A stretch of 19,108 nt of DNA from a virus (taxonomy: Duplodnaviria > Heunggongvirae > Uroviricota > Caudoviricetes): positions 1-19,108 of IMG/VR virus record IMGVR_UViG_2534681697_000017. One strand, given 5' to 3'. Positions 1,979-18,847 of this stretch are shown here, piece by piece. The notes beneath the pieces are model-generated. The model ran no database searches, was not told where the DNA came from, and worked only from the letters and a program-made list of their open reading frames with translations. Made by a program: the position numbers and the translations under genes. Numbering within the stretch: the first letter of the stretch is position 1; each line of letters opens with the position of its first letter.

Positions 1979-1988
1979 GGGCCGCAAC

Positions 1989-2479: not shown

Positions 2480-2782
2480 ATGAGCAGAAAAACCCAACGT
2501 TACTCTAAAGAGTTCAAAGCCGAAGCTGTCAGAACGGTTCTTGAAAATCAACTTTCGATCAGTGAAGGCGCTTCCCGATTATCCCTTCCTGAAGGCACTT
2601 TAGGACAATGGGTTACCGCCGCCAGAAAAGGGCTCGGTACTCCTGGTTCCCGCACGGTGGCTGAACTGGAATCTGAAATTCTGCAACTGCGTAAGGCGTT
2701 AAATGAAGCTCGCCTTGAGCGAGATATATTAAAAAAAGCAACAGCGTATTTTGCACAGGAGTCGCTGAAAAATACGCGTTAA
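2480..2782 (+). CDS. IS600 OrfA
   Basis: 100-aa ORF with GGAG upstream; sequence recognised as IS600 OrfA (MSRKTQRYSKEFKAEAVR...). Confidence 0.9.
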   Translation: MSRKTQRYSKEFKAEAVRTVLENQLSISEGASRLSLPEGTLGQWVTAARKGLGTPGSRTVAELESEILQLRKALNEARLERDILKKATAYFAQESLKNTR

Positions 2783-2817
2783 TCGAACAATGGCGACAAC
2801 AATTTCCCATTGAAGCG

Positions 2818-3636
2818 ATGTGTCAGGTATTTGGTGTATCCAGGAGCGGTTATTACAACTGGGTACAGCATGAACCCTCAGACAGAAAACAAAGTGATGA
2901 GCGGCTAAAACTGGAGATTAAGGTGGCACATATCCGCACTCGCGAAACATATGGAACCCGGCGGCTCCAGACGGAGCTGGCAGAGAATGGCATCATCGTT
3001 GGTCGTGACCGACTGGCACGTCTTCGTAAGGAGCTAAGGCTACGCTGTAAGCAGAAACGCAAGTTCAGAGCGACTACGAACCCGAACCACAATCTGCCAG
3101 TTGCGCCAAATCTGCTGAACCAGACGTTCGCTCCTACAGCACCAAATCAGGTCTGGGTGGCGGACCTGACGTATGTTGCCACACAGGAGGGATGGTTGTA
3201 CCTCGCTGGCATCAAAGATGTTTATACGTGCGAAATTGTCGGCTACGCCATGGGAGAGCGCATGACAAAAGAGCTGACAGGTAAAGCCCTGTTTATGGCG
3301 CTCAGGAGCCAGCGCCCACCTGCCGGGCTAATCCACCACTCTGATCGAGGTTCACAGTACTGCGCATACGATTACCGGGTCATACAGGAGCAGTTTGGTC
3401 TGAAAACATCAATGTCGCGTAAAGGTAACTGTTACGACAACGCTCCGATGGAAAGCTTCTGGGGAACGCTGAAAAATGAGAGCCTGAGCCACTATCGTTT
3501 TAATAACCGGGATGAAGCCATCTCAGTAATACGGGAATACATTGAGATTTTCTACAATCGTCAGCGTCGTCACTCTCGTCTGGGGAATATCTCCCCGGCA
3601 GCCTTCAGGGAAAAATATCATCAGATGGCTGCTTAA
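2818..3636 (+). CDS. IS600 OrfB (DDE integrase-type transposase); normally made as an OrfAB fusion by -1 frameshifting
   Basis: 272-aa ORF with an rve-type DDE core (HSDRGSQY...CYDNAPMESFWGTLK). Coordinates are from the first in-frame ATG; the frame is open upstream into the orfA overlap. Confidence 0.9.
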   Translation: MCQVFGVSRSGYYNWVQHEPSDRKQSDERLKLEIKVAHIRTRETYGTRRLQTELAENGIIVGRDRLARLRKELRLRCKQKRKFRATTNPNHNLPVAPNLLNQTFAPTAPNQVWVADLTYVATQEGWLYLAGIKDVYTCEIVGYAMGERMTKELTGKALFMALRSQRPPAGLIHHSDRGSQYCAYDYRVIQEQFGLKTSMSRKGNCYDNAPMESFWGTLKNESLSHYRFNNRDEAISVIREYIEIFYNRQRRHSRLGNISPAAFREKYHQMAA

Positions 3637-3660
3637 AAAAAGAACAAATGGTAGTGTCCG

Positions 3661-3879
3661 CTATTGCCAGTACACCTCAAAATCACGGGTATGTAGAATT
3701 TTCGATGGTTCACCTGAATAAACCTCATCCAGAGCTCTAACGTATTCGAGAGTTTCAGCGTTGGACAACCAGTGATCCAGACGCTTCCCGAAACGTTTTG
3801 CAATATCAGTGGCATTAATCCAGCCATCAGTATTGAAGCGGATAGGTTCGCCTTTGTAATTCAGTGGAACGATATTCAT
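3661..3879 (-). pseudogene. KilA-N-like phage protein (possible antirepressor N-terminal domain), 3'-truncated by IS600
   Basis: The N-terminus MNIVPLNYKGEPIRFNTDGWINATDIAKRFGK resembles KilA-N domains. The ORF runs into the IS600 right end (native sequence only 3680-3879). Confidence 0.45.
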
Positions 3880-4026
3880 AGCGTCTTACCTTTTAGAAAG
3901 ATGAGCCTGTTCGCACAGAAAAGCCGTCCCCGAGATGGTCGCCACCATATACGGCAGTTCTCAGGCTCAGCTTTCTGAAAAACTCGGGATTGTTACGCGC
4001 TGCGATGCGCGGTTTACTGCGGACAT

Positions 4027-4052
4027 ATAAAAGCCCCGCAAGTGCGAGGCTC
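4027..4052 (-). terminator. Putative intrinsic terminator downstream of Rz
   Basis: Minus-strand RNA AGCCUCGC-ACUU-GCGGGGCU forms an 8-bp stem (one G-U pair) followed by UUUUAUA, about 30 nt after the Rz stop. Confidence 0.4.
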
Positions 4053-4083
4053 ATTAAATGGACTTTGTGATTTGCAAAAAAAT

Positions 4084-4551
4084 TTATTTCAGGCACTGAG
4101 TCCTGATGTACTCCTGAAGCATTCTCAATGCTGTCTGGTCGCTGATGATTCCGTCCCGGATACCGAGAACGTTTCGTCCAGCAACTGGAGAGAGTTCGAC
4201 GGTGGCATCATTGCCCATGCCGGAGGCGCTGGAGGTTTCGGCTGAGGATGGCACAGGGCATTTTCCTTTGACGAGCACCCGACCACCATTATCAAGCTTG
4301 CGCCGAAGAGCATCATTTTCAGCTTTCGCATCAGCTAACTCCTTCGTGTATTTAGCATCGAGTGCATCAGCAGCACGCTGGCGCTGCTGCATGTCAGTAA
4401 TGGTTGCGTTCGCCAGCTTCAGTTCTCTTGCGTTTTTGTCGCGCTGCTCTTTGTAGGTAATGGCGTTATCACGGTAATGATTAACAGCCCATGACAGGCG
4501 GACGATGATGCAGATAACCAGAGCGGAGATAATCGCGGTGACTCTGCTCAT
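4084..4551 (-). CDS. Rz: Rz, inner-membrane spanin (i-spanin)
   Basis: N-terminal transmembrane segment then a charged coiled-coil region; sits immediately after the endolysin with the start overlapping its stop; contains an embedded lipoprotein ORF in the +1 frame. Start taken as ATG 4551 (the listed ORF begins at GTG 4563). Confidence 0.8.
4125..4331 (-). CDS. Rz1: Rz1, outer-membrane lipoprotein spanin (o-spanin), embedded in Rz
   Basis: [19 protein letters not shown] lipoprotein signal followed by a proline-rich segment ([11 protein letters not shown]), entirely inside Rz in another frame: the classic Rz/Rz1 arrangement. Confidence 0.7.
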
Positions 4552-5021
4552 TGCTGCCCCCACAAACAGACTTCACGCTCAATCTCACGACGGGTCATCA
4601 GCCCTTTCCATTGCTTACCGCCAGCATATGTCCAGCGACGTAGCTGGTCACATGCGCCTTTGATATCGCCCTGGTTTATTTTGCGAAGAAGCGTCGATGT
4701 TCTGAAATTGCCAGCGCCCACGTTGTAAACGAACGAGTAAAGAGCGCCGCGCGTTGTTTCCGGTATATCGACTTTGATGTACGGGTTAATTTGTCTGGCG
4801 ACAGTGGCAAGGTCTTTATTCAGGAGAGCTTTGCATTCTGCTTCGGTATACGTTTTACCAGGCATGATGTCTTTTCCGGTGTGTCCGTGACATACAGTCC
4901 ATACACCAATGATATCTTTGTATGGTATGTAGCTGACACCTTCCAGACCATCGTTACCACCTGGGCCAGTGATTAACACAGATGCTATAGCAAACAGCCC
5001 CGCCACCAATAGCAACTGCAA
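4548..5021 (-). CDS. R: Phage lysozyme (P21 R-like SAR endolysin); N-terminus disrupted by a frameshift, listed ORF starts at a TTG
   Basis: [15 protein letters not shown]...[15 protein letters not shown] matches P21-type endolysin as recalled. The expected ATG (5046-5044, overlapping the S stop as TAATG) opens a different frame that stops after 30 codons ([30 protein letters not shown]). See findings. Confidence 0.7.
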
Positions 5022-5045
5022 CAGCCTTGCGTAATGATGGCGACA

Positions 5046-5261
5046 TTATTCACCTCTCGCAGCCTTACGCTTATCTTCTCTTATTTTGAAATACAGATTC
5101 GTCAGATAAGTCAGAAGCCCCAGAAGCAGACTTCCCAGCACACCAATCGCAGCCCACTGTGATGGACTGACCTGATCCAACCACTGCAAAAACCAGTAGC
5201 CGGCACTGCCGGCGGAGGTGCCGTAGGCAATGCCCGTTGAAATTTTATCCATGGATTTCAT
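5046..5261 (-). CDS. S: Class II holin, P21 S-like pinholin with dual-start motif
   Basis: [71 protein letters not shown] is near-identical to S21 as I recall it; Met1-Lys-Ser-Met4 dual start; strong GGAGGTGAGG ribosome-binding site upstream. Confidence 0.85.
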
Positions 5262-5550
5262 AGCCTCACCTCCGCAAATAACGGATGGCGTAGTTCTTAT
5301 ATTGGGAAGGGAAAAAGAAGGCCGCAGCGTAACTGTCACTGATGAATTCAGGATAGCCAGTGGCTACGGCTCAGTTTTGGTTGTGCTGTTGCTGGGCGGC
5401 GATGACGCCTGTACGCATTTGGTGATCCGGTTCTGCTTCCGGCATTCGCTTAATTCAGCACAACGGAAAGAGCATTTATGACTCGCATCGCGGGAAAAAG
5501 CCCACGGTAGAGAGTCGAACTCTACAAATGCTCTTACCTGTTGTGAAAAC

Positions 5551-5580
5551 AAAAAAGCCCCGACGTTTCTGCCGAGGCTC
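5551..5580 (-). terminator. Intrinsic terminator upstream of the lysis cassette (tR'-like position)
   Basis: Minus-strand AGCCUCGGC-AGAAAC-GUCGGGGCU forms a 9-bp stem (two G-U pairs) followed by UUUUUU. Confidence 0.5.
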
Positions 5581-5812
5581 TTACCTAATCTAGCCAGTAT
5601 GTCGACCCTAAATATTATCGACGACCGGGGAAATCAGGATTTCAATTTCACTGCTCAGTTCGCTTTTGCTCCGAGCATATGCAAAAAATACCACTTTCAT
5701 TTCTCGGAAGCAACGCATTTACAAAATTATTTCAGTTCAGGCCGCTATTAATGGAAATTCTTTATCCAATTCTCGTTTCATTGCATAAAACATTTCTGAC
5801 TCCAGCACTTTC

Positions 5813-6263
5813 TCACACCACTCGCTTACGACAATACTGAATATCAGCACCTGTTATATAAGAAATAATCCTGGCTATATCTTGCGTGCAATTGCGATTG
5901 CAATATCGCTTAATAGCTACATCGCGGACAGGGCTTTCACGGTGAAACGTCTTAACCATGTCCGGCATCCCACTGAGCAGACGTGAGCGTTCCGCACGAG
6001 ATACATGGTAAATAGCGATCACGCTCCCTGATATAAGCATTTACTGCCTGCTGTGCCTGCTTCAGCCAGTAACTGCGGGGTTTTAAATCGCGGCGTCTTG
6101 CTTTCAGCTTGTCTGCCTGTTCTTTTGCTGAGGCTATAGCCTTTTCTTTTCTGACCAGTTCCAGTGCACACTGACCACAACAAACTTTCTGATATGAGCG
6201 GAACGGCACAAACTGATTGCCACACACTTTGCAGTTTTTGGGTTTACGCTGTTTCATTATCAC
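5813..6263 (-). pseudogene. ninG: ninG (rap)-like recombination protein gene, disrupted
   Basis: The first 103 codons (5952-6263) match lambda NinG as recalled ([43 protein letters not shown]) and then hit a stop; the downstream sequence continues only in another frame. Confidence 0.6.
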
Positions 6264-6264
6264 C

Positions 6265-6714
6265 TCAGAAAAACGACAGCAGGCGGTTATTCAGTTCAGG
6301 ATTGTTTGTACGCCCAAACACGTGTTTCAGCGCGGCATTAATCATTGCGTTGTAGCAACGTTCAAACTCATCCTGATCCATATTCGCGTAACTCAGGCTT
6401 TTTGCCCGATATCTCACCTCACCTCTTATGGTTGTGACCACATCATAGAACCCGGCAAGAATTGTCAGATTTTTACGAAACTCATCAAACTGCGTCGCTT
6501 CATCAGAGAATTCGTATCCGGCGTGTTCAGCACACCAGTACTGAAAGCAAAAATTAAGAAAAGCGAACATCTTCCGGTGAAAAGATGGATTACGGGTAAG
6601 ATTTGCTTCCAGCGTGTACAGCTCACCGTTTTTAAATTTTGCCAGTCGGGGTAAATCGCGTTCATACGCCGGTATAAATACGCCATTAGCAGCCTTGATC
6701 ATCTCCAGCTCCAT
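6265..6714 (-). CDS. Conserved phage protein of unknown function (149 aa)
   Basis: Intact ORF whose ATG overlaps the upstream stop (ATGA at 6711-6714); lies between the primase gene and ninG. Family assignment not secure; it does not resemble Q. Confidence 0.6.
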
Positions 6715-7673
6715 CAGGCAGCCTCCGCTTTGAATTTGCGCGTCAACACATGTTCACGGGCCTCACACCCCTGAATGAGCATGTCGTTAAAATCCGGCAA
6801 GTCAGGCCAGCGAATACTGACCTTCTCCACGTCATTACGACTCATGAGATTCTTATGCCCACATTTAAAGGCAGCCGCCAGACCTGCACCATGCTCGTCA
6901 TTGTCAGCAAAGATAATCAGGTGATTAACGCCAGGTGGAGCAATAAACTTCTCCATAAAGCCAGAATTCATTGTTGACCATACGTTGCAGCGAAATATCT
7001 GGCGACATGACAGCGCCGTCTCAATCCCCTCTGCAATTCCCAGAGTTGATGACACCGGATACAGGCGTATCGCTACAGATTTGGCATATTCCAGATAAGA
7101 TTGCTCCTGTAATGCCAGCGCTTTTTTGGCAGCCTCCACACCCGCTTTGCGATCGCCATCCAGCAAGGTACGGTGCAGGTAACACAGCATGCCTTTATCA
7201 TCTGTTACGATTGAATAAATCGCCTGGTACTCCCGTCCATTAGCAATCTGCCGATTACAAAAACGAACGGATTCTGCCGGTAACTGGAGGATCCCCCTGT
7301 TTTTCAGATATGCCTCTCCTGAAGTTCCGCGCAAACATGGCAATCTGGCAAATTTAGCTGTAACCCTCTCCCGGTTTCTGGTTGTGTCAGTCACAACAGG
7401 TCTTGCGTGCTCTTTTTTCCAAGTATTACCAATCAGTCGATCGATTTCATCGCACAGAGTCACCCAAGGCTTACCCGTTGCCAGTTGCAACAACTGCATC
7501 CCATCGCCATGACCACAGACACATATCCACGATCCTGTTCCGCAACGGAATTTACCTTTAGCGCCGCAAATGGGGCAGGTGCCCTTGTAATGTTTACCGC
7601 CAGTGACAGGAGGCATACCGTAGTATTCAAAAATCCGCTCCCAGTGCCCCTTTGCTGCCTCCTTAGTTTGCAT
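6714..7673 (-). CDS. Zinc-ribbon plus Toprim domain protein (phage DNA primase-like)
   Basis: N-terminal Cys cluster (CPICGAKGKFRC...WICVCGHGD) and a Toprim-like acidic motif (LIIFADNDEHGAG); GGAGG ribosome-binding site; coupled to the helicase gene upstream. Confidence 0.75.
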   Translation of the reverse strand: MQTKEAAKGHWERIFEYYGMPPVTGGKHYKGTCPICGAKGKFRCGTGSWICVCGHGDGMQLLQLATGKPWVTLCDEIDRLIGNTWKKEHARPVVTDTTRNRERVTAKFARLPCLRGTSGEAYLKNRGILQLPAESVRFCNRQIANGREYQAIYSIVTDDKGMLCYLHRTLLDGDRKAGVEAAKKALALQEQSYLEYAKSVAIRLYPVSSTLGIAEGIETALSCRQIFRCNVWSTMNSGFMEKFIAPPGVNHLIIFADNDEHGAGLAAAFKCGHKNLMSRNDVEKVSIRWPDLPDFNDMLIQGCEAREHVLTRKFKAEAA

Positions 7674-9183
7674 GCTGGCCTCCGGTCATGGCTTTCTTGC
7701 GCCCTTTGGCATAGGCAATGATCTTTGACTTGATGAAATTGTGCACTTCAACCGAGGTTTGCAGCGGCGCGTTACTGAAGCCTTTAGGCCACACCCCGAA
7801 CTTCTCTTTGTAGGTATGAGCGCACCATCCGTCACTCAGTGGCTTACCTGTCGCGTTGCGGTAATTCTGATAGCCCTTGATCTCACTCCACCACCGCTGT
7901 TTTTCCTCGCGGCTGTATTCGCGTTTCCCTTTGTTTACGCGAGAGAGTTTTCGATCGCGGTCTGTTGCCACATCATCGCCACCAAGAGGACGAAACCCAC
8001 ATTTGGGACACATGTGTACACCAGCAGGCTTCATGAAGTGGCATTTGGGGCATTCTCTGGGAAGTTTTTCAGCTTTAACCTCGCCACCGCCAGCAGACGC
8101 TTTCATTCCGTCATTTTTGCCCGGCAGTTCGTCATACTCGATATCCTCGGGGAAACCCAGCCGATGAACCGTGCCAGAATGGTCGAAAATCAACGCACGT
8201 TGTTTACCTGGGGCTGTACGTAACGCTCTACCTATGCACTGCAACCAACGGATTTCTGATTTTGTCGGACGGGCATAGATCAGGCAGCGAACATCGCTGT
8301 CAAATCCCGCAACCAGTACGCCGACGTTGACAATTATTTTGGTCACGCCCTCTTCAAAACGGCGAATGATGTCCTGTCGTTCATCATGGAGGGTATCTGC
8401 CATCATCACCTCTGCGCCAATACCGGCCTGTAAAAACTCACGGGTAACAAAATTCGCATGCGCAACATTCACACAGAAGCAGATCGTCGGCAAATCCTCA
8501 CCATTCTCAAGCCAGTTGCGAACGATATCGCCAACCAGATCCGAACTCCCCATGATGGATGCGAGCTGCTCCTCGTTGTAATCCCGTCCAAATACGGTGT
8601 TACTGGTTTTTACGCCAGCCAGATCAGGCATTGAGGGGGCAAAAAACTCATAATCGCTCAGATCACCACGCTGAATAAGTTCACGAATCGTTGTAGGCTT
8701 GATCAGGCATTCGTAGTACTTCCCCATCCAGGCTGCGAACGGGGTACCGGAAAGTCCAAGAACCCTGATGTCTCTGTCCCGGATAACCTCAAGTAACGCA
8801 CGACGCTTCATGTGTGCTTCATCGATGATCAGCAGATCGATGTTGTCAGGAAACTCACGACGGATCAGCGTGTCGGCACTGGCAATCTGAATCAGTCGTG
8901 ACGGGTCATAGTTAGGGTGATCACGCCATACAAAACTGATTTCTTCCCACGGCAAACCGTATTCGGTGAAACGTTCCGCTGTCTGGTTCAGCAGGATGGT
9001 GTACGGACAGACAAACATCACTCGCATACCACGTTCAACCATTCCGGCGGTGACGAATGCTGCAAGACCAGTTTTGCCAGAGCCAGTGGGTGCATACATC
9101 AGGTACGTGCGATGCTGTTTCCACTGGTGCCGCAGCTGGTTTAAACCGCGCTCCTGAGCAAAGTTTGGGATTATTTTCAGCAT
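7663..9183 (-). CDS. Superfamily-2 DEAD/DEAH-box helicase with C-terminal zinc ribbon (phage replicative helicase)
   Basis: Walker A (APTGSGKT), DEAH box (LLIIDEAHM), C-terminal CPKCHFMKP...CPKCGF. 506 aa. Confidence 0.8.
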   Translation of the reverse strand: MLKIIPNFAQERGLNQLRHQWKQHRTYLMYAPTGSGKTGLAAFVTAGMVERGMRVMFVCPYTILLNQTAERFTEYGLPWEEISFVWRDHPNYDPSRLIQIASADTLIRREFPDNIDLLIIDEAHMKRRALLEVIRDRDIRVLGLSGTPFAAWMGKYYECLIKPTTIRELIQRGDLSDYEFFAPSMPDLAGVKTSNTVFGRDYNEEQLASIMGSSDLVGDIVRNWLENGEDLPTICFCVNVAHANFVTREFLQAGIGAEVMMADTLHDERQDIIRRFEEGVTKIIVNVGVLVAGFDSDVRCLIYARPTKSEIRWLQCIGRALRTAPGKQRALIFDHSGTVHRLGFPEDIEYDELPGKNDGMKASAGGGEVKAEKLPRECPKCHFMKPAGVHMCPKCGFRPLGGDDVATDRDRKLSRVNKGKREYSREEKQRWWSEIKGYQNYRNATGKPLSDGWCAHTYKEKFGVWPKGFSNAPLQTSVEVHNFIKSKIIAYAKGRKKAMTGGQHAN

Positions 9184-9563
9184 GACGCCCCCTTGCTACG
9201 TGATTTACCCGTTGCCGGGATCACGTCGATCTCATCGCTAACGTATTGATCCGGATTACGTGAACAGCGCAGAAGCACGATACCAGGAATGCCGTATAGC
9301 TTGAGTCTGCGCAGTTTCAGTATTGAACGTGCCCGTGGTGACGCTCTGTCCACCTCGATCGCGCACCGTTCACCAGATGGGGCAACGACCATGATATCGA
9401 CGAATCCGCGCTTACCGTTGCCCATATCAACCAGATAATTACGTTCGATCGCCAGTCCGGCATCACGCAATTTGGCAGCCAGCACATAATCAAACGTGAC
9501 CTTGTCTTTTCCGGTGTAGAATTTGTTTCCGAGCAGGCTGATAACCACATGTTTGATGAACAT
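9177..9563 (-). CDS. Hypothetical protein, possibly nuclease-fold (VRR-NUC/PD-(D/E)xK-like), coupled to the helicase
   Basis: 128-aa ORF whose stop overlaps the helicase start. The GFVDIMVV...AIEVD segment loosely resembles a PD-(D/E)xK core; weak inference. Confidence 0.45.
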   Translation of the reverse strand: MFIKHVVISLLGNKFYTGKDKVTFDYVLAAKLRDAGLAIERNYLVDMGNGKRGFVDIMVVAPSGERCAIEVDRASPRARSILKLRRLKLYGIPGIVLLRCSRNPDQYVSDEIDVIPATGKSRSKGASC

Positions 9564-9785
9564 GGTACTATTTCCACCGCAATAGTTGGCATAATAATAA
9601 TTTCGCCAGAAACCATCTCACCCTATACAGTGATCTACCTAACCTATGGAGCTGCCTTCCTCTGGTAGTGCCCTTACAGGCACGGATGTTACAGATCTGC
9701 CCCCTTACCCCCTTCTTAGTAAAATTTCAAGCGCAATGATTTCATGAGAAATCATTTCACAAAAAAATAATCACCTTGATGAGAT

Positions 9786-10067
9786 CTATTCCTTCCGTAT
9801 CGCTACTGGCGAAAGCATCCAGCCACGGCTGGCTCTCGCGTACTTCTGGACATACACCCGTAACCGGGTGTTGGCACTCCGTCTTGCCCTGTTGCCCTTC
9901 CTGAACGATACAGGCTCCTTGTCCCACTCTTCCTGGTACACTCTCGCGTACTCTGCTGCAATTTTTACCCTGGTGGTCGGGTCTAGCTGTAACAATTGCT
10001 CCTGTATCCAGTCCCGATCAGCATCACAGTACTGATCGGGCATAACCGTTTTGATTTGCCTGTTCAC
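9786..10067 (-). CDS. Hypothetical protein (93 aa), first gene after cro-like
   Basis: GTG start at 10067 preceded by GGAGGTG at 5-nt spacing; an alternative ATG lies at 10043. No recognisable domain. Confidence 0.5.
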   Translation of the reverse strand: MNRQIKTVMPDQYCDADRDWIQEQLLQLDPTTRVKIAAEYARVYQEEWDKEPVSFRKGNRARRSANTRLRVYVQKYARASRGWMLSPVAIRKE

Positions 10068-10089
10068 TCACACCTCCGATGGAGGGTTA

Positions 10090-10329
10090 TCAGGCTGTTT
10101 GCCTTACATGAAGCGGAATACCATCTTCCATGTTTAGGTAGTCATGCGGGTTTAGTTCATGGGGAGTTACATTCCAGTCTGTAGCTTTTGCCCATTCAAT
10201 GGCTTTCCGCCCCTGAGGCATGTATCTCCCTGTAATAACCCCACTGACAAATCCCTGAGAAACTCCAACAATCGCCGCAAAATCGGCTTGTCTGATAGAG
10301 CTTTGTCTCAAGTACTCGTCAAGAGTCAT
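10090..10329 (-). CDS. Cro-like HTH regulator (Cro/YdaS-type)
   Basis: Transcribed divergently from cI; helix-turn-helix SIRQADFAAIVGVSQGFVSGVITGR; GGGAGG ribosome-binding site 7 nt upstream of the ATG. Confidence 0.65.
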   Translation of the reverse strand: MTLDEYLRQSSIRQADFAAIVGVSQGFVSGVITGRYMPQGRKAIEWAKATDWNVTPHELNPHDYLNMEDGIPLHVRQTA

Positions 10330-10434
10330 AGAGATCCTCCCATTTCAATTTTCCGATATTAGCTTACCTGATTTAAATGTCAATAGGCTAGCTATTTGAT
10401 AAATATTTGTGTTGCTAATAAAATTGGAGGCACT
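10330..10434. promoter_or_regulatory. cI/cro divergent intergenic control region (oR-like, pR/pRM-like)
   Basis: 105-bp AT-rich spacer between divergent repressor genes; contains an imperfect dyad TAGCTTACC...GGCTAGCTA. Operators are not individually resolved. Confidence 0.5.
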
Positions 10435-11154
10435 ATGACGAAGAAAATTACAATTACTGACAAAGACATCCAGAACGCTGAACGACTGCGCAAAATCTGG
10501 GATGAAAAACGGAAACAGCTATCCCTAAGCCAGGAAAAAGCCGCAGATATCCTCGGCTTCAAAACGCAGGGGGCTGTTAGTCAGTTATTGAACGCAAAAA
10601 TTGCGTTAAATACTGAAAATACCCTTAAGTTTGCGGCTTTATTACAGGTTCCTGCGGAAGAAATTAATCCAGATCTGAGTGATTTGTTACGCAGTATTCG
10701 TACCCACACACCGGGAAACAGGCGTAACCTGTTCGAGAAATATTACGAATATCCGTTACTCTCCTGCGTACAGGCTGGAGCTTTCTCAATGGATGATTTT
10801 TCGTACACCGCAAAGGATGCGATTAAGTGGATCTCCACCACCACAAAAGCCAGTGACAGGTCGTTCTGGCTGGAGGTCAAGGGGCATTCAATGACCGCGC
10901 CGCAGGGTGGTAAACCCAGTTTCCCCGAAGGGATGCTGATACTCGTTGACCCTGAGCGGGAGATTGAGGATGGCGATTTTTGCGTGGCCCGAATGAATGG
11001 CGATGAATTCACCTTCAAACGATTCATTCGTGAGAGCGGTAAAGCGTACCTGGAGCCACTCAACCCACGATTCGACATGATTGAGTGTAACGAAAACTGC
11101 CAGTTTGTCGGAAAGGTCATAAAGTCGCAGTGGAATGATGAGACTTTTGATTGA
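10435..11154 (+). CDS. cI: Lambda-family CI repressor (HTH plus S24 LexA-like autopeptidase domain)
   Basis: C-terminal half ([32 protein letters not shown]...[11 protein letters not shown]...[14 protein letters not shown]) closely resembles the lambda CI C-terminal domain as recalled, including an Ala-Gly site (VQAGAF). N-terminal HTH is divergent. Start at ATG 10435 with GGAGG upstream. Confidence 0.9.
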
Positions 11155-11275
11155 ACTCACAGGATGATATCAATAACCTTGCAGGGAGGCTATTTTATTT
11201 CCTTTTTCAGCGAAAAATCTCCGAGAACCCTCGCCCAATGCGGGCGGGGAGCAGTCGCAATCAAGTGAGCCATAA

Positions 11276-11446
11276 ATGAACAAAGACAAATCCTTGACAC
11301 AACAAGTGGAAGAAATACTTAGCAAGCAAAAAGTTAGCGAGCAAGGAAAAATGATTCAATCATTAAAGAACATGGGCTTGATCAACAAGCCTGTTTTTAC
11401 TTTGGCTTATGGACCAGATATTACAACCTGCCAAATGCACCAATAA
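11276..11446 (+). CDS. Small ORF (56 aa) downstream of cI, unknown function
   Basis: ATG 11276 to TAA 11444-11446, immediately followed by a strong terminator; weak ribosome-binding site; below the size cutoff of the supplied ORF track. Confidence 0.3.
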   Translation: MNKDKSLTQQVEEILSKQKVSEQGKMIQSLKNMGLINKPVFTLAYGPDITTCQMHQ

Positions 11447-11478
11447 CAAAACCCGGCCTTGGTGCCGGGTTTTGTTTG
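11447..11478. terminator. Bidirectional intrinsic terminator between the cI and hicAB transcription units
   Basis: AAAACCCGGC-CTTGGT-GCCGGGTTTT perfect 10-bp stem, flanked by T-runs on both strands. Confidence 0.7.
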
Positions 11479-11560
11479 CCTCCTGCTCACCCCACCATTT
11501 ACCAGTGCGCCGTAAATTCCCCATTCTTCGGCGGTGAGGATGTCAAAGACGAAGGGAACA

Positions 11561-11905
11561 TTAAGCCCCTGTGTGATGGTTGACTTCTTTTTCCAGCGCC
11601 TTATTAACAAAGGCGTTCAGTGATAAATCTTCTTCCATCGCCATTTCAGCGACCCGACGATGCAGTTCTGGATCAAGTCTGACGTTAAACACACCTTTAA
11701 ACGGGGTATCAGGCTCCTTTCCATCCTCCACACAAGACTGTAAATACAGCTCAACCGATGTCTTAAACTCCTGTTCCAGTTCAGCTAATGTAGAAGCCTC
11801 ATAAGTTACCAGGTCTCGAATAAACGCCAGTTTTCCGTACAGGATATTATTTTCAAAATCTGGTTCTACTGTACCTAAATATCCTTTATATTTTAGATGA
11901 TTCAT
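11561..11905 (-). CDS. hicB: HicB-family antitoxin (HicB fold plus C-terminal ribbon-helix-helix)
   Basis: ATG overlaps the hicA stop (ATGA at 11902-11905); C-terminal ELHRRVAEMAMEEDLSLNAFVNKALEKEV is RHH-like. Confidence 0.7.
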   Translation of the reverse strand: MNHLKYKGYLGTVEPDFENNILYGKLAFIRDLVTYEASTLAELEQEFKTSVELYLQSCVEDGKEPDTPFKGVFNVRLDPELHRRVAEMAMEEDLSLNAFVNKALEKEVNHHTGA

Positions 11906-12156
11906 AATACCCCAGCCTCTTTCAGATTCTGTTTAATCGCTTTCAGCGTTCCACCTTTAATATAACTTTCTGGATGTGGGCGATGCATTAATATGGTGTG
12001 GTTGATTTCAGCATTGAAAAACCGCACTCTTGAGCCCTGCATTTCCTTTTTGACATATCCCAGAGAGGAAAACAAAACGACCAACTCATCCCATTCAAAC
12101 GTTTTTTTACTGTTTAAAAACTTTTCCAGTAGCTTATCTGCTTTCCCCATACCCAC
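11902..12156 (-). CDS. hicA: HicA-family toxin (mRNA interferase)
   Basis: GSRVRF...HRPHP...IKGGTLKAIKQNLKEAG matches the HicA consensus. The listed start is GTG 12156; an alternative ATG lies at 12150. Confidence 0.7.
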   Translation of the reverse strand: MGMGKADKLLEKFLNSKKTFEWDELVVLFSSLGYVKKEMQGSRVRFFNAEINHTILMHRPHPESYIKGGTLKAIKQNLKEAGVL

Positions 12157-12305
12157 ATAATCTCATCTTCGCTACATTGCAACTAATTATAGTTACAGGC
12201 GATGTTTTTGTCAAAAGCCACCAAGCCCGCTGGGTTCTCTTTGACTGTTCACTGCTTTTCTTAGTGTTATCAGGGGGTTCCCTCACACCAAATCTAACAC
12301 AGAGT

Positions 12306-12332
12306 AACCGGCCTCAGCGCCGGTTTTTCTTT
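12306..12332 (+). terminator. Plus-strand intrinsic terminator upstream of the putative early-left promoter
   Basis: AACCGGC-CTCAGC-GCCGGTT stem followed by TTTTTCTTT; no U-run on the opposite strand. Confidence 0.55.
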
Positions 12333-12443
12333 GCGCATCCTCCATAACTCACCACCTGCATTATCCTCGCTTATATTTTTTACATAAATAAATTAATCTA
12401 AAAATCAATCACATAGATTAAAATTAAATTATCAGTCTTACTA

Positions 12444-12473
12444 TTAACTGCGATCAGTTGCGCTTATTATATT
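12444..12473 (+). promoter_or_regulatory. Candidate early-left (pL-like) promoter
   Basis: TTAACT, an 18-nt spacer, then TATATT, within a very AT-rich block; read by eye only. Confidence 0.3.
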
Positions 12474-12495
12474 TTACCCAAGCCAGAAACATCGC

Positions 12496-12565
12496 GCCCT
12501 GACACAGGGCTACATAAATCAGTCGTACGGCGCGACTTAACCCGCCGCAAAATGCTCTTTAACAA
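12496..12565 (+). promoter_or_regulatory. Antitermination-like element: boxB-like hairpin (12496-12510) plus rrn-type boxA (12553-12565)
   Basis: GCCCTGACACAGGGC has the same stem as lambda nut boxB (GCCCU...AGGGC) with a different loop; TGCTCTTTAACAA equals the E. coli rrn boxA consensus as recalled. Confidence 0.4.
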
Positions 12566-12854
12566 TCTGGAGCTTTACAGCGTCAATGACCTGTTTAGAC
12601 CCCTACACGTAAACGTGCTGTATCATCGGGTGCGATCCGGTCGATGAGAGAGTATCCCCGCGCGAGAGCGAGAACGGCGTGAGAACGGGCAACACTGGCA
12701 GGAAGTTGGCGCTGACCAATACAGGGAATGTTTTGGGGTGCAGGCGGCACCGCCAAAGCATTTCCGAGAAAGGACGATATTGACTGCGTGTGATGTCGGG
12801 GCTATATTTGGCGAACACCTCATAAAACGGGTGCCGGGATTAGCACCCCGAAAG

Positions 12855-12893
12855 TTACTCGAGCGCATAACCGCGCTGAAGCGGTTTTTTTAT
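12855..12893 (+). terminator. Putative intrinsic terminator in the leader just upstream of the Rha-like gene
   Basis: CGCATAA-CCGCGCTGAAGCGG-TTTTTTTATGCG: inner hairpin (ACCGC/GCGGT) plus T7 run, enclosed by an outer CGCATAA/TTATGCG stem. Confidence 0.4.
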
Positions 12894-13057
12894 GCGTAAT
12901 GCACAGCCACATTCAAATTATGGTGAGGCGTGCGGGGCAGCCGCAAGGCTGGCCGGGTTCTCGAGTGACCGGTAGTGCTAACCCTGTGCGTCTCACCACC
13001 CATGAGATTAGCACCTCTGGTGGTGAGTTAATTAACTTATCACTTGAGGATGTCATT

Positions 13058-13435
13058 ATGGCTACTACCCTTTCTCACCCTGACGTAACCATCGAAAATG
13101 GTCGCGCCGTCACTACTTCTATTTCGATTGCTGAGTTTTTTGGCAAGCAGCATCACCATGTTGTTCAGAAAATAGAATCCCTCGAATGCTCTGAGCAATT
13201 CTTAACCCGCAACTTTTCGCGGGTTAAATTCGAACACCGAGGCAATACCTATAACGCCTACCAAATCACCAAAAACGGCTTCGTTTTTCTGGTGATGGGC
13301 TTCACCGGCAAAAAAGCAGCTGCATTCAAGGAAGCCTACATTGCTGAATTCGATCGCATGGAAAAACAACTATGGGAACAGAAACAACTGGCCCTGTCTT
13401 CTCCTGCGATGAATATCAATTTCCCTTTATCGTAG
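13058..13435 (+). CDS. Rha-family phage regulatory protein (125 aa)
   Basis: VTTSISIAEFFGKQHHHVVQKIESL resembles the Phage_pRha motif. Start at ATG 13058 with GAGGA 7 nt upstream; the longer ORF from 12899 is rejected. Confidence 0.6.
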   Translation: MATTLSHPDVTIENGRAVTTSISIAEFFGKQHHHVVQKIESLECSEQFLTRNFSRVKFEHRGNTYNAYQITKNGFVFLVMGFTGKKAAAFKEAYIAEFDRMEKQLWEQKQLALSSPAMNINFPLS

Positions 13436-13462
13436 TTTTCAGAGCATCACCCCTATGCCACG

Positions 13463-13696
13463 ATGAACTATGTTGATAGAAATACATTGCAGCTTGATAC
13501 CTCCGTCTTATTCGACATGCCAAGCCCTGCAATGCGCATATTTAATGAATTACGTCGTAACGGCTATAACGTCGATGCGGCTGTCGCCGAATTTAACGCC
13601 TTCAAGCATCTGACGGAAGAAATGCGCCGTAAATTGCTGGATATTTCCCGCACATCGGAAAAGTCTTCCCGCTTTGGTTTCAACGTTAATCTTTAA
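13463..13696 (+). CDS. Hypothetical protein (77 aa)
   Basis: ORF in the early-left operon; weak ribosome-binding site. Confidence 0.45.
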   Translation: MNYVDRNTLQLDTSVLFDMPSPAMRIFNELRRNGYNVDAAVAEFNAFKHLTEEMRRKLLDISRTSEKSSRFGFNVNL

Positions 13697-13766
13697 TTAA
13701 CCCCATCCCCGATCACATATCGGGGATTAAATTAAATATCTGGATTAATTAACCGGAGGATTTGTC

Positions 13767-13979
13767 ATGCTCAAACCTCACTACGGAACCGCATTAGTTT
13801 CTCGCGAGGACGTTAAACCCGGTACAGCAATTCTTTACAACGGGCGTTATTACATGGCGTCAGCTAACGTTAATAATGCACTTTACGCACATTCACTGAT
13901 TGAAAAAATCCGCATTATTTCAGATGCAATCGAAGTTTACCTGAACCATAAAGGCCAACCGTTAATCTCACCAGCCTGA
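13767..13979 (+). CDS. Hypothetical protein (70 aa)
   Basis: ATG preceded by CCGGAGGA. Confidence 0.55.
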   Translation: MLKPHYGTALVSREDVKPGTAILYNGRYYMASANVNNALYAHSLIEKIRIISDAIEVYLNHKGQPLISPA

Positions 13980-13990
13980 AAGGAAATATC

Positions 13991-14272
13991 ATGCTCAATC
14001 AAAAAATTAATATCAATGTAAAAAACGTCATAACGCCAGCAGAAACGATAATGGGAGAAGTTTTTATGGATGATAAAATCATCGCCTATTTTGTCGTCCT
14101 GCCTGATGAGGCTATTTCTGTTATTGATACGGAAGGCAATGTTATGTTTATCGCGGAACATCCAGAAGACATCGCATTACAGGCCGCTGCATATTTCTTC
14201 GCTAAAGAGCAGGAGGAAGAATGTAACTGCCCTGTCTGTCAGCTTTCCCGACAAATTAATTTAATGCATTAA
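13991..14272 (+). CDS. Hypothetical protein (93 aa), acidic with C-terminal CxxC
   Basis: ATG preceded by AAAGGAAA. Confidence 0.55.
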   Translation: MLNQKININVKNVITPAETIMGEVFMDDKIIAYFVVLPDEAISVIDTEGNVMFIAEHPEDIALQAAAYFFAKEQEEECNCPVCQLSRQINLMH

Positions 14273-14292
14273 CCGGAATCAGGAGTTCCGCC

Positions 14293-14574
14293 ATGAACGC
14301 ATACCTCACCTGCGACCGCATAGAGGAGCGTCGCTGGGTTAATCAGCATATTCAGGATGAAAAGGATAAATGGATTGATGATCGGGCGCAGGAGCTTATC
14401 AGCATGTTCCCCGATAAACCATTGCTTATGAGCAGCCTTTTTTTACCCAAAGAAGCCCAACTGGCACTCACTGGCGAAAAAGCTGAAGAGGCGTACAACG
14501 ATTATATCTCAGCGATCGCCTATGCTCGGGCGGAAGAAGAATGGGAGAGAAAATTCTCCCCCTGTCCTTTCTGA
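14293..14574 (+). CDS. Hypothetical protein (93 aa)
   Basis: ATG preceded by CAGGAG. Confidence 0.55.
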   Translation: MNAYLTCDRIEERRWVNQHIQDEKDKWIDDRAQELISMFPDKPLLMSSLFLPKEAQLALTGEKAEEAYNDYISAIAYARAEEEWERKFSPCPF

Positions 14575-14591
14575 TTTTCAGGACCAAAAAA

Positions 14592-15541
14592 ATGTTCGAT
14601 ATCGTTGAATTTGTTAAGCAGCAGGAGCGCTTTTTCTGCGAGGCATTAACTGAACCGACGCTGACATGGGCGAAGGAAAGTCAGTTTGCAATTCAGCAAT
14701 TCCAGAAAAATGCCTTTCTGGCTGACACAGCACGGGCAAATCTGCCCAGCGCACAGAACGCTATCATCAATGTTGCCGCCATCGGCATAACCCTGAACCC
14801 GGCCAGCAAGCTGGCGTATCTGGTCCCACGAAAAAAGGCTGTATGCCTGGATATCAGTTATATGGGGCTTCTGCATCTGGCACAGGTCACAGGAGCCATT
14901 CAGTGGGGGCAATGCAAACTTGTTTACGAGAAGGACATTTACGAGTCCAACGGTATTGACTGCGCCCCCACGCACAAATACAACCCATTCGTAGACAGGG
15001 GCGCACGCATTGGCGGTTATTGTGTCGTAAAAACATCCGAAGGCGACTATCTGACCGAAGAGATGAGCAACAGGGAAATCGAGGTCATCAGGGCGTGCAG
15101 CAAAGCCGGAAATAACGGAGGAAGTAGCCCGTGGGATAGTTTCCCCGATGAAATGGCCAGAAAAGCCATTGTAAGCGCGCCAGCAAATACTGGCCCCGTC
15201 GCGATCGCCTGGATACAGCTATCGACTACCTGAACACTCAGGCCGGTGAAGGTATCATCCTGAATGCTGATCACATCCCTGAGCGTGACGTCACTCCCGC
15301 ATCAGATGAGATTATCAATGAGATCACTCAGGCAATCACCGAAATTAACAAGACATGGGATGACCTGCTTCCCTTATGTTCCAAAACATTCCGTCGCACG
15401 ATTGCATCACATGAATATCTCAGTCAGGAAGAAGCTGTCAAAACGCTTGATTTTGTCAAAAAGAAAGCTGCCAGAAACAAGGCCACGGCGGAAGCGAAAA
15501 TTCACGCCACCACGGAAAATAGCAGCGAGGCCGTGTCATGA
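14592..15541 (+). pseudogene. recT: RecT-family single-strand annealing protein, interrupted by a -1 frameshift near 15172
   Basis: The N-terminal 213 codons (14592-15233) are RecT-like (AIGITLNPASKLAYLVPRKK...). The expected C-terminal continuation (KRASKYWPRRDRLDTAIDYLN...SEAVS) is read in the -1 frame from about 15173 to the TGA at 15539-15541, which overlaps the exonuclease start. Confidence 0.7.
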
Positions 15542-16227
15542 CACCAGAAATTATTCTCCAGCGAACTGGCGTGGATATTACCAGCCTCGACCAGGGCGAT
15601 GATGGATGGCACAAGCTGAGACTCGGTGTTATCACTGCTTCAGAAGTTCACAATGTGATAGCAAAGCCACGTTCCGGCAGCAAATGGCCTGATACAAAAA
15701 TCTCATACTTCCACACCCTGCTGGCTGAAGTTTGTACCGGCGTGGCACCGGAAGTTAACGCTAAGTCGCTCGCATGGGGAAAGCAATACGAAGATGATGC
15801 CCGTGCCATCTTCGAATTTATCGCGGATGTTACCGTCTCGGAAACGCCAATAATTTTTCGTGACGAAAGCATGCGCACCGCCTGCTCTCCCGACGGTTTA
15901 TGCAGCGACGGTAACGGCCTTGAGCTTAAATGCCCCTTCACTTCCCGCGACTTCATGAAGTTCCGGCTTGGCGGCTTTGACGCTATCAAGCCTGCTTACA
16001 TGGCCCAAGTGCAATTCAGCATGTGGGTTACAGACAAGGACGCCTGGTACTTCGCCAACTACGACCCACGCATGAAGCGTGAAGGCCTGCATTATGTCGT
16101 GGTCGAGCGGGATGAAAAGTACATGACGAGTTTTGATGAGATGGTGCCGGAGTTCATCGACAAAATGGACGAAGCACTGGCGGAAATTGGTTTTGTATTT
16201 GGAGAACAATGGGGGGTTAATAACTAA
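15538..16227 (+). CDS. YqaJ-type (lambda-exo-like) phage exonuclease, PD-(D/E)xK
   Basis: 229-aa ORF with motifs SPDGL...GLELKCP...AYMAQVQ; paired with recT upstream; GCGAGG ribosome-binding site. Confidence 0.8.
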
Positions 16228-17174
16228 TGGATGAAGTGATTTTTACTTATAACGAAGAATCAGCACTGACCGCCGGACAAGGTGGTTTTATTACCGAAAC
16301 GGGTGCGCATATCATTAACATCACCGAAGCAGAACTCAAGCAATCAGAAAAAGGTGCCCGATTCATTGAGTTTTCTGGAGAATCCGACGACGGACGGAAA
16401 ATCCAATATCTCAGTGTTTGTGTTCAGAAGAATGACGGCACTGAAAATAAATTTGGGGCGAGCATTATTCACGCCATGATGGGATGCACAGGAATTGGGC
16501 AGTTAACGCAACATATGGTTTCCGTCAGTGAATCAAAACAAATATCTGAATGCTATGTGGCGCAAAGGAGGCAAACAGTGAGCGAAATTGACTATCAGGC
16601 ACTGCGTGAAAAGGCAGAGAAAGCAACGTGGGGTGTGTGGTCGCTCGAATATGGAGAGGAGAAACTTGATGCTGATGATGCGCTAATTCACCGTGAAGTT
16701 GTTGGATATCTTCCTATTTGCAGAATTGAAGGAGCGCATCCTGAAAGCGGTTTCGATGAAGATTTCCAAATGGAACAGCAGGCCAATGCTGAATTCATCG
16801 CCGCAGCCAATCCGGCTACTGTGCTGACACTGCTGAGCGAGCTGGAAACAGCAAAAAAGCGCATAGCAGAACTGGAAGCCAAACCTGTAAGCCAGACTTA
16901 CAAGTTGAATGAGATGTCGGGCAACTCTCCGGTAATTCCGGATGGTTGGATAAGCTGTAGTGATCGAATGCCTGAAAAGGGCCAGAACGTACTTATTTCG
17001 GTGAATTTCGATAGCTCTCTGGTTGAACCGCTAATATGCTCCGCACGCTATACCGGAGGTACATTCCGGCGTGGAGATGTAACGGTTAAGCCAGGTAATG
17101 GTATTGAACAGGCAACCCACTGGATAGACTGGCCCCCTGAATCTCCAGACAACCAGTATCACTTAAATAAGTGA
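16227..17174 (+). CDS. Ead/Ea22-like protein with C-terminal DUF551-like domain; last ~15 codons and stop supplied by the IS2 terminus
   Basis: [22 protein letters not shown] is Ea22-like; the C-terminal ...ATHW resembles the DUF551 end. The reading frame continues into the IS2 left inverted repeat ([16 protein letters not shown]). Confidence 0.6.
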
Positions 17175-17357
17175 TAGTCTTAATACTAGTTTTTAGACTA
17201 GTCATTGGAGAACAGATGATTGATGTCTTAGGGCCGGAGAAACGCAGACGGCGTACCACACAGGAAAAGATCGCAATTGTTCAGCAGAGCTTTGAACCGG
17301 GGATGACGGTCTCCCTGAACCGCCCCGGGTTTCCTGGAGAGTGTTTTATCTGTGAAC

Positions 17358-18240
<883 letters not shown>

Positions 18241-18244
<4 letters not shown>

Positions 18245-18567
18245 TTTTTCCAGAGGCGGTCGAACTCCGCCTTCGCAAAATAAGCGGAAGCCTGGCGAAG
18301 GATATCGTTACTGCGGCGCAGTTCACGATTTTCACGCTCCAGCTCTTTCAGACGCTGACGTTCAGCGGTGGTGAGCCCTCCATCACCGCCCCCGGTATCC
18401 CGCTCATGCTGGCGAACCCAGACACGCAGAGTCTCCGGCGTACAGCCAATCTTTGGAGCAATGGAACAAATTGTCGCCCATTGTGAGTCATATTCGCCCT
18501 GACTTTCCAGAACCATACGGACTGCCCGTTGACGGACTTCGGGGGAAAAACGAGTATTTTTAGTCAT
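18241..18567 (-). CDS. IS629 OrfA
   Basis: 108-aa [42 protein letters not shown]... recognised from memory. Confidence 0.9.
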
Positions 18568-18847
18568 CCTGTTTACCTCTTTCTCAGGAAGTTTAGTCTC
18601 CAGGATTCCCGGGGCGGTTCACCCTCGTTGCCCGGCAACATGGTGTAGCAGCCAGCCAGTTATTTCTCTGGCGTAAGCAATACCAGGAAGGAAGTCTTAC
18701 TGCTGTGGCCGCCGGAGAACAGGTTGTTCCTGCCTCTGAACTTGCTGCCGCCATGAAGCAGATTAAAGAACTCCAGCGCCTGCTCGGCAAGAAAACGATG
18801 GAAAATGAACTCCTCAAAGAAGCCGTTGAATATGGACGGGCAAAAAA

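Follow-up and report, generated by a model that had tools for sequence, protein, structure and literature searches.

Mosaic CI repressor and candidate immunity cassettes of an Eru1-type lambdoid prophage segment

The cI gene and its surroundings

The DNA analyzed here is a 19,108-nucleotide stretch of a Caudoviricetes virus (IMG/VR record IMGVR_UViG_2534681697_000017, positions 1 to 19,108; hereafter the window), and the subject is its phage repressor gene cI, at 10435-11154 on the plus strand, together with the immunity region in which it lies. By sequence, the window is a segment of an Eru1-type, TL-2011c-like (Oslovirus-related) lambdoid prophage. Its gene order runs from lysis genes (4084-5339) through a truncated NinG gene, primase, helicase, orf128, orf93, cro, and the right operator region (OR) to cI, after which come orf56 with a terminator, HicBA on the opposite strand, the putative left operator and promoter region (OL/PL), isrK and C4, an open reading frame (ORF) of the Ash/Rha family, and the RecT and exonuclease genes. 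The cro gene is transcribed divergently from cI, an arrangement of the lambdoid switch that is seen directly; a tripartite OR, back-to-back PR and PRM promoters, and a distant OL are predicted (Table 1).

The cI reading frame is genuine and undamaged, with an ATG at 10435 and a TGA at 11152-11154 delimiting a 720-bp coding sequence for 239 amino acids (aa). The Pfam search placed a helix-turn-helix (HTH) domain, HTH_3, at residues 24-77 (E 3e-7, exceeding the curated cutoff) and Peptidase_S24 (PF00717) at residues 107-229 with the whole model covered (E 2e-28). This assignment is further strengthened by the PDB sequence search, whose top match was the full-length lambda repressor 3BDN (residues 2-238, E 4e-74), accompanied by the lambda C-terminal structures 8GMU, 2HO0, 1KCA, and 1F39 (E 1e-46 to 2e-59); the lambda N-terminal domain 1LMB matched residues 2-82 (phmmer, E 6e-11), and weak LexA matches ranked last. 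On these matches the fold of CI is settled. At E <= 1e-3, chains other than lambda CI and LexA were not found; structures of the 434 and P22 N-terminal domains are, we presume, in the PDB, and their absence from the matches suggests that the N-terminal domain has no close similarity to those of 434 and P22. The protein is 100% identical to WP_000162429.1, which carries the RefSeq label "LexA family protein" and occurs in E. coli strain 48, JNEC-KY204, and JNEC-KY176 (loci L011, L012, and L013, respectively), and 98.7% identical to the "phage repressor protein CI" of Shiga toxin (Stx) 2 phage F039.

Alignment with lambda CI places the scissile Ala114-Gly115 of the window protein on lambda A111-G112 and the catalytic Ser152 and Lys195 on lambda S149 and K192. 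With its HTH, its Peptidase_S24 domain, its Ala-Gly site, and its Ser/Lys dyad, the protein is by sequence a self-cleaving repressor of the LexA/CI type. Helix 3 reads Q45-G-A-V-S-Q-L-L-N53, against Q44-S-G-V-G-A-L-F-N52 in lambda. Three lambda residues that we take to be base-contacting are replaced (S45 to G, N55 to I, and K5 to I), which is consistent with an altered DNA specificity, while E34 and D38, which we take to correspond to the positive-control patch of lambda, are kept and would be compatible with PRM activation. At 13 positions that we assume to make the C-terminal cooperativity contacts of lambda, 9 residues are identical and the other 4 are substituted (N148 to H, D197 to E, F202 to Y, and Y210 to F).

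Table 1. Positions of genes, immunity blocks, and predicted regulatory sites in the window
Feature	Position	Strand	Basis or remark
Immunity block A: cro, OR, cI codons 1-103	10083..10742		blastn homology gap vs TL-2011c
cro-like gene, 79 aa, HTH_3 type	10090..10329	-	Pfam HTH_3; phrog_35 transcriptional repressor, E 5e-17
PR-like promoter TTGACA-16-TAATAT, predicted to drive cro	10356..10383	-	consensus scan 10/12; inferred
Predicted OR1 ATTAG-CTTAC-CTGAT	10358..10372		exact match to AWYAG-N5-CTRWT; invariant in 5 same-immunity loci
Predicted OR2 AATAG-GCTAG-CTATT	10382..10396		half-sites a perfect dyad; relatives vary solely in central spacer
PRM-like promoter TTGATA-17-TAAAAT, predicted to drive cI	10396..10424	+	consensus scan 10/12
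Predicted OR3 ATTTG-TGTTG-CTAAT	10405..10419		1 mismatch to pattern
cI repressor gene	10435..11154	+	ORF; Pfam HTH_3 + Peptidase_S24; full-length lambda repressor 3BDN match
cI codons 1-103: N-terminal HTH and linker, immunity-specific part	10435..10743	+	identities to TL-2011c, lambda
cI codons 104-239: cleavage-site region and S24 catalytic/oligomerization domain, shared chassis	10744..11154	+	identities to TL-2011c, lambda
56-aa ORF and hairpin/T-run (11450-11477)	11276..11477	+	phrog_28875; WP_164834428.1 in relatives
Immunity block B: OL/PL region	12335..12478		co-variation with immunity type
Possible weak OL3 ATCAA-TCACA-TAGAT	12404..12418		7/10 half-site positions fit; tentative
Predicted OL2 ATCAG-TCTTA-CTATT	12431..12445		sole exact pattern match in window outside OR; half-sites kept, spacer varies
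PL-like promoter TTAACT-18-TATATT	12444..12473	+	consensus scan; TTGACT in four relatives
Predicted OL1 ATCAG-TTGCG-CTTAT	12453..12467		1 mismatch; half-sites kept, 5/5 spacer positions vary (5 loci)

Mosaic structure of the immunity region

The divergence of window CI was investigated by pairwise comparison with the repressors of lambda (reference taken from NC_001416), HK544, P22 (C2), 933W, and TL-2011c. Against lambda, identity is 65% over residues 104-239 (88/136) and 64% over the last 120 residues (120-239; 77/120), 36% over residues 1-92, 0/11 over linker residues 93-103, and 32% over residues 1-103 together; in the C-terminal domain, P22 C2 reaches only 42% and 933W 17%. The original prediction, made on the sequence alone, had proposed a mosaic of a lambda-like C-terminal domain and a divergent N-terminal domain, and the divergence from lambda is indeed uneven (32% for residues 1-103 vs 65% for 104-239) rather than uniform across the protein. 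The C-terminal likeness to lambda stands, although to call it close is generous for 65%, which is similarity and not near-identity; similarly, the N-terminal HTH is divergent as claimed but, given its match to 1LMB, is still homologous to that of lambda and not an unrelated domain. The predicted absence of lambda operators was borne out, as OR1, OR2, OR3, and OL1 of lambda were found nowhere in the window at <=3 mismatches, and the TATCACCGC half-site was absent from 10330-10434 and 12340-12480 at <=1 mismatch, while the identical search recovered the lambda operators in the lambda locus (L001) as a positive control. The lambda immunity group (such as lambda and HK544) has TATCACCGC-type 17-mers at OR and OL that the window lacks.

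A sharper picture emerges from the phage TL-2011c. By searching phage genomes with CI (tblastn), we obtained 23 records at 95-99% identity, a middle tier of 73 records at 60-80%, in which all those sampled (TL-2011c, PA2, ArgO145, and others) stood at 69.9%, and a third tier of lambda-type repressors at ~50%. The 69.9% tier arises because a near-perfect C-terminal match is combined with a dissimilar N-terminal part: from Y104 on, the window and TL-2011c repressors share 135/136 residues (99%), while before Y104 (N-terminal domain and linker) they are 31% identical. At the nucleotide level, identity to TL-2011c is 95.8% in orf93 (9786-10067), 39% in cro, 45% in OR, 48% in cI codons 1-103, and 95.6% in codons 104-239, and the steps between 96% and 39-48% are each completed within ~30 nt at both borders. 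In agreement with these steps, blastn homology to TL-2011c ends at 10082 and restarts at 10743. The right joint falls at the YEYP motif of CI, where the self-cleaving lambda fragment "101-229" starts (PDB 2HO0 aligns to query residues 103-232), so that OR and cro were exchanged together with the DNA-binding domain and the flexible linker of CI. Block A, defined by this homology gap, is found at >=95% identity in 16 of 5,426 complete E. coli genomes, and the immunity module occurs in 23 phage records.

The cro genes differ in family. Cro of TL-2011c is a member of the lambda Cro family (PF09048, E 3e-34), and window Cro, an HTH_3-type protein, falls in a different one; a 62% identity between TL-2011c Cro and lambda Cro has been reported (Llarena et al. 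2021, PMC8044961). Directly outside block A, orf93 is 96% identical across the two immunity types.

The same pattern could be explained without recombination if diversifying selection for new immunity had sped up the evolution of the N-terminal domain and constraint had held back that of the C-terminal domain, lambda-like and window-like repressors then sharing one continuous history. Repressor families often show more variation in the DNA-binding domain than elsewhere, and the lambda comparison taken alone (32% vs 65%) could in principle reflect rate heterogeneity. Yet nucleotide identity to TL-2011c jumps from 48% to 96% in a single 30-nt interval at codon 103/104 and again at the cro/orf93 border, the cro genes come from the two Pfam families named above, the type of an unlinked OL block changes together with that of block A (see below), and the CI of TL-2011c is about evenly diverged from lambda (56% identity in the N-terminal part, 65% in the C-terminal domain). 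Since the step-like profile includes synonymous sites, it indicates recombination and not rate heterogeneity, and we regard an uninterrupted history as extremely improbable. A different immunity specificity on a lambda-like induction chassis, as originally proposed, is therefore supported at the level of sequence, with the TL-2011c comparison and not that with lambda providing the decisive evidence. Two corrections follow from the joints as aligned here: the immediate recombination partner is the Eru1/TL-2011c (BAA2326) repressor lineage rather than lambda, and the swapped unit, as read from the alignments, extends to the entire linker, to OR, and to a cro gene whose product is of another fold class.

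The relation to BAA2326, an Stx2a phage of O104:H4 whose repressor shares 61% identity with lambda CI (Chakraborty et al. 2018, PMC5977221), gives the comparison a functional side. The repressor of BAA2326 binds cooperatively at OR1 and OR2, activates PRM from OR2, and represses PRM at OR3 (PMC5977221). All three DNase I-footprinted BAA2326 operators are held exactly by the TL-2011c OR, while none of OR1-OR3 was found in the whole window at <=3 mismatches. Given the 99% shared C-terminal domain, it can reasonably be inferred by analogy that window CI would resemble the BAA2326-type repressor in dimerization, cooperativity, and cleavage; the same does not hold for DNA specificity. The lineage of the N-terminal domain, in turn, is joined in Salmonella to a diverged S24 C-terminal domain (with 78% identity across the N-terminal part) and sits in Serratia and metagenomic proteins on short non-S24 C-termini (56-65% identity), and its occurrence on several C-termini underlines its modular use. 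A word-indexed protein search with the N-terminal domain returned only 7 matches and missed the full-length protein itself, making it unusable for counting C-terminal types.

A second region that co-varies with immunity type lies beyond the cargo genes, where the original prediction had looked for further operators (12340-12480). This was resolved by a four-way alignment that includes E. coli strain 48 (L011, window-type immunity) and FHI_NMBU_10 (L010, TL-type immunity), in which the HicAB cargo and flanking genes are common. Block B is 92% identical between the window and strain 48, 42% between the window and FHI_NMBU_10, and 43% between strain 48 and FHI_NMBU_10, and its flanks are 92-99% identical in all comparisons. 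The phage records that contain block B (~145 bp) number exactly 23, and the complete E. coli genomes 16; these counts equal those for the N-terminal domain and block A, the records coincide wherever listed, and co-occurrence of blocks A and B was checked directly in strain 48. A wider candidate, 12245-12466 as a whole, is shared by F039 and missing from TL-2011c, and was rejected as an immunity-linked unit: 12245-12334 is common to both immunity types and represents the 3' end and terminator of the upstream cargo gene, which narrowed the block to 12335-12478.

In phages of the TL-2011c/BAA2326 type, the equivalent of block B carries AATCACCGCAAGTTATA between a TTTACA -35 and a TATATT -10 hexamer (L003 6373-6389 and L010 4892-4908), and this sequence resembles the footprinted BAA2326 OR2 and OR1. 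Eru1-type Stx phages were reported to have "no readily identifiable OL" (PMC5977221); contrary to that statement, the position and sequence of AATCACCGCAAGTTATA suggest that TL-2011c/BAA2326-type phages do have an OL.

Predicted operators and the state of the prophage

The operator model was built from positional analogy with the footprinted BAA2326 OR, dyad symmetry, and comparative alignments. It predicts that the repressor recognizes operators with a 15-bp ATYAG-N5-CTRWT core, of which OR would have three and OL two or three, and we hold the five-site version (OR1, OR2, OR3, OL1, and OL2) to be fairly probable. The predicted centers in OR (10365, 10389, and 10412) are spaced by 24 and 23 bp, as in lambda OR1-OR2-OR3, and the positions of the sites relative to promoter-like hexamers also follow those of lambda. 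Specifically, OR1 lies inside the PR spacer and overlaps the -10 (on the minus strand, -35 at 10378-10383 and -10 at 10356-10361); OR2 overlaps the PR -35 by 2 bp and adjoins the PRM -35 (10396-10401); OR3 is placed between the PRM -35 and the PRM -10 (10419-10424); and, on the left, OL1 falls within the PL spacer and OL2 shares 2 bp with the PL -35. The PL-like promoter is directed away from cI, toward isrK/C4, the Rha-like gene, and the recombination genes. The PRM start is placed provisionally ~3 nt before the ATG, its exact position being uncertain, which would make the cI transcript near-leaderless.

Exact matches to the degenerate pattern number 3 in the 19-kb window, where 0.28 would be expected, and each lies in OR or OL. 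Among the fetched loci, exact matches are confined to those of the same immunity, with none in ~59 kb of lambda, HK544, P22, 933W, TL-2011c, and FHI_NMBU_10 sequence. By comparing five same-immunity loci, we found variable columns at 2/60 half-site positions (both at the degenerate third position), 14/30 central spacer positions, and 13/159 positions elsewhere (Fisher P ~1e-6 for spacers vs half-sites); in the OL3 candidate, three columns of the central spacer vary and the half-sites are invariant. This spacer variability (10363-10367, 10387-10391, 10410-10414, 12436-12440, and 12458-12462) exceeds that of the surrounding intergenic DNA and is strongest at OL1 and OL2. It could reflect tuned repressor affinity or relaxed constraint beside constrained promoter elements; if the former is true, variable non-contacted operator spacers could tune repressor affinity and hence the induction threshold. 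A fourth exact match lies ~60-75 bp upstream of a Panacea-domain cargo gene in those same-immunity relatives that have this gene (L012 2557-2571, L013 2557-2571, and L002 7341-7355) and may be due to chance or to repressor control of the cargo gene.

The operators might instead take another form, for example the 20-bp palindrome TCAATAGGCTAGCTATTTGA alone, or BAA2326-like sites that are longer and of weak symmetry, or an OR without an OL, with block B then serving a different regulator, for instance Cro or the Rha-like protein. In BAA2326 the footprinted operators are only weakly symmetric and have little in common with each other (PMC5977221), which makes sequence-based operator prediction risky in this repressor family, and the pattern used here is degenerate. 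As to the repeated dyads that the original prediction proposed to look for, a generic repeat search of 10300-10450 returned one imperfect palindrome only (10380-10399), a blind shared-k-mer comparison of OR with 12245-12500 gave nothing convincing at stringent settings, and a strict palindrome scan found none. On the other hand, the pattern is specific to same-immunity loci, its spacing and placement relative to the -35 and -10 hexamers are lambda-like, the half-sites of OL1 and OL2 are conserved while their spacers vary, and block B co-varies with the type of N-terminal domain, so that we consider a different set of operators rather unlikely, about a one-in-several prospect.

Taken together, these observations lead us to propose, with high confidence, that the gene encodes the maintenance repressor of an Eru1-type prophage, a recombinant with swapped immunity cassettes and a kept self-cleaving C-terminal module. 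CI dimers would bind through their N-terminal HTH to the predicted OR1-3 between cI and cro and to two or three predicted OL sites, 2 kb away, at the PL-like promoter. Binding would silence PR (cro and the helicase/primase replication genes) and PL (isrK/C4, the Rha-like regulator, and the recombination genes), and occupancy of OR2 would probably activate PRM, with occupancy of OR3 probably repressing it. The C-terminal part would let the protein dimerize, let dimers cooperate, and, when stimulated by RecA, carry out self-cleavage at Ala114-Gly115 through Ser152/Lys195; in this way DNA damage would induce the prophage. In this proposal, one cassette (cro, OR, and cI codons 1-103) and a second, unlinked one (OL/PL) would both have been exchanged relative to the TL-2011c/BAA2326 type, with the C-terminal module and the rest of the phage retained, resulting in a heteroimmune phage on the same induction chassis.

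Several points weigh against this proposal. The 23 phage records are closely related and the co-occurrence of the two blocks is partly clonal, which leaves strain 48 vs FHI_NMBU_10 as the main independent support. The operator pattern was built post hoc from the sites it scores, with only OL2 and the cross-locus specificity serving as semi-independent tests; its half-sites are short and AT-rich, and allowing one mismatch gives 16 matches in the window vs 6.7 expected. OL3 was chosen partly from its variation pattern. Finally, the prophage looks defective, and the repressor may no longer control a viable phage.

This last point merits closer attention. NinG is truncated (103 aa, covering model positions 1-111 of 193, in the 5340-6263 region), the Q-like antiterminator gene survives as DNA fragments alone at ~5590-5960, where an intact ORF is lacking, the interval from NinG to the holin contains no stx gene, and IS3-family transposase genes stand at both window ends (427-3636 and 17358-18567, with an ALIL frameshift pseudoknot at 18170-18286), flanking the region. 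RecT also seems to be split (14541-15233 and 15264-15602). Such features would fit a relic gene in a decaying prophage, kept, if at all, for superinfection immunity or for control of HicAB and orf56 rather than as a working switch. However, CI is 100% identical in other prophages and 98.7% identical in apparently complete Stx2a phages, from whose OR, cro, and OL the undamaged counterparts in the window differ little (97-99% identity). Intact phages of this immunity include F039 and Lyz12581Vzw. The relic reading, which we consider possible but unlikely, concerns the state of the host element and is compatible with the maintenance repressor proposed above.

The remainder of the window is in keeping with an Eru1-type, Stx-phage-like prophage (Llarena et al. 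2021; Fagerlund et al. 2022). Positions 5958-9196 are 90% identical to the TL-2011c helicase/primase region, with Toprim and Zn-ribbon primase domains (Pfam) and a helicase ORF at 7663-9183, and the Eru1 helicase and primase genes, which replace O and P, lie upstream of cI. Between cro and the helicase gene, in the position of lambda cII, sit two conserved minus-strand ORFs of unassigned function (9786-10067 and 9177-9563), matching phrog_852 (E 5e-43) and phrog_1347 (E 2e-50), respectively, with no Pfam match. Downstream, the 56-aa ORF with its hairpin and T-run is probably the end of the cI transcript. The cargo slot that follows varies in relatives, holding BsuBI-type restriction-modification genes, Panacea-domain genes, or HicAB; here the slot between cI and OL is filled by a HicB/HicA toxin-antitoxin pair (11561-12156, minus strand) preceded by a perfect TTGACA-17-TATAAT promoter sequence (12186-12214, minus strand). 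Just downstream of the predicted PL, Rfam gathering-score matches place isrK at 12815-12891 (61.6 bits) and the C4 antisense RNA at 12916-13003 (78.6 bits), before and overlapping an ORF with Ash and Rha domains (12899-13435). The arrangement resembles an RNA-controlled antirepressor module of the P1 immI or Gifsy-1 isrK type, and the RNAs are annotated in F039 as well.

Significance and relation to known systems

The exchange of immunity cassettes is textbook knowledge for lambdoid phages, as are repressors that combine two domains of separate history. The protein, as its sequence matches indicate, is already annotated correctly in RefSeq and in deposited phage genomes, and its mosaic is likewise an instance of textbook modular exchange and not a new principle. 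The diversity of CI among Stx phages has also been catalogued (PMC8951638; PMC8044961). In the literature surveyed, including the supplements of Fagerlund et al. 2022, the protein accession, the phage name, and the sequence were not found, and neither a clean swap of N-terminal domain, OR, and cro with a separate OL swap between two Eru1 immunity types, nor an operator prediction for the window immunity type, nor the OR2-like AATCACCGCAAGTTATA in the PL-like promoter of TL-2011c/BAA2326-type phages was found stated.

The case is a clean and quantifiable one of lambdoid and Stx-type prophages changing immunity without altering the SOS-sensing module. Such a change lets near-identical phages co-lysogenize one host, with a bearing on Stx-prophage load and toxin output. 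The selective value of an immunity swap is illustrated by E. coli E2855 (NZ_AP018796.1), which carries two very similar Eru1-type prophages of both immunity types (repressors at L014 1897-2610 and L015 1553-2272); their helicase, orf128, and orf85 proteins are identical, and their repressor C-terminal domains share 132/136 residues. On this sequence comparison E2855 would be a natural heteroimmune double lysogen in which mixed repressor dimers are conceivable. If these form, mixed dimers or higher oligomers would couple or destabilize the repression of two Stx-type prophages per cell. The combined statement that Eru1 Stx phages have an immunity-specific OL/PL cassette ~2-3 kb from OR, swapped together with the N-terminal domain, and that mixed repressor oligomers are possible, is put forward tentatively, as less likely than not to hold. 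In practical terms, the analysis yields an operator prediction for an uncharacterized immunity type in O145, O103, and O111 Shiga toxin-producing E. coli phages, the position of an OL/PL cassette in the Eru1 phage group, and the question of mixed repressor oligomers in double lysogens.

Among known systems, TL-2011c and BAA2326 are closest to the window. They share with it the Eru1 helicase/primase genes at 90-96% nucleotide identity, the order cro, OR, cI, lysogeny cargo, PL-like promoter, isrK/C4, and Rha-like gene, and the lack of N, cII, and cIII homologues (PMC8044961). They differ in the N-terminal domain, the operators, the Cro family, and the OL/PL block, and in carrying BsuBI-type restriction-modification cargo where the window has HicAB and the 56-aa ORF. 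Lambda CI (3BDN, 1LMB, and 1F39) resembles window CI in its two-domain build (237 vs 239 aa), and the OR predicted for the window would match that of lambda in its three sites, its 24/23-bp spacing, and its PR/PRM overlap; unlike lambda, the window has an N-terminal domain only 32-38% identical, lacks rexAB and N, and encodes a Cro of a different fold family. Short HTH repressors of 140-151 aa (proteins P0004-P0007, from Serratia and metagenomes) are similar in the N-terminal domain (56-65% identity, with a similar recognition helix, TQGAVSQ / TQSTVSQ) but have a short helical C-terminus without an S24 domain, and are presumably not inactivated by self-cleavage.

Heteroimmune lambdoid pairs such as lambda, imm434, and imm21 carry immunity in an exchangeable cassette made up of the repressor's DNA-binding region, the operators, and cro; lambdoid recombination joints sit at domain or gene borders, as in the modular evolution of Campbell and Botstein, and the 434 and P22 c2 repressors have similar C-terminal domains with different N-terminal domains. 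Unlike these classical pairs, the window has its cassette split in two blocks, with the C-terminal domain and the intervening cargo shared.

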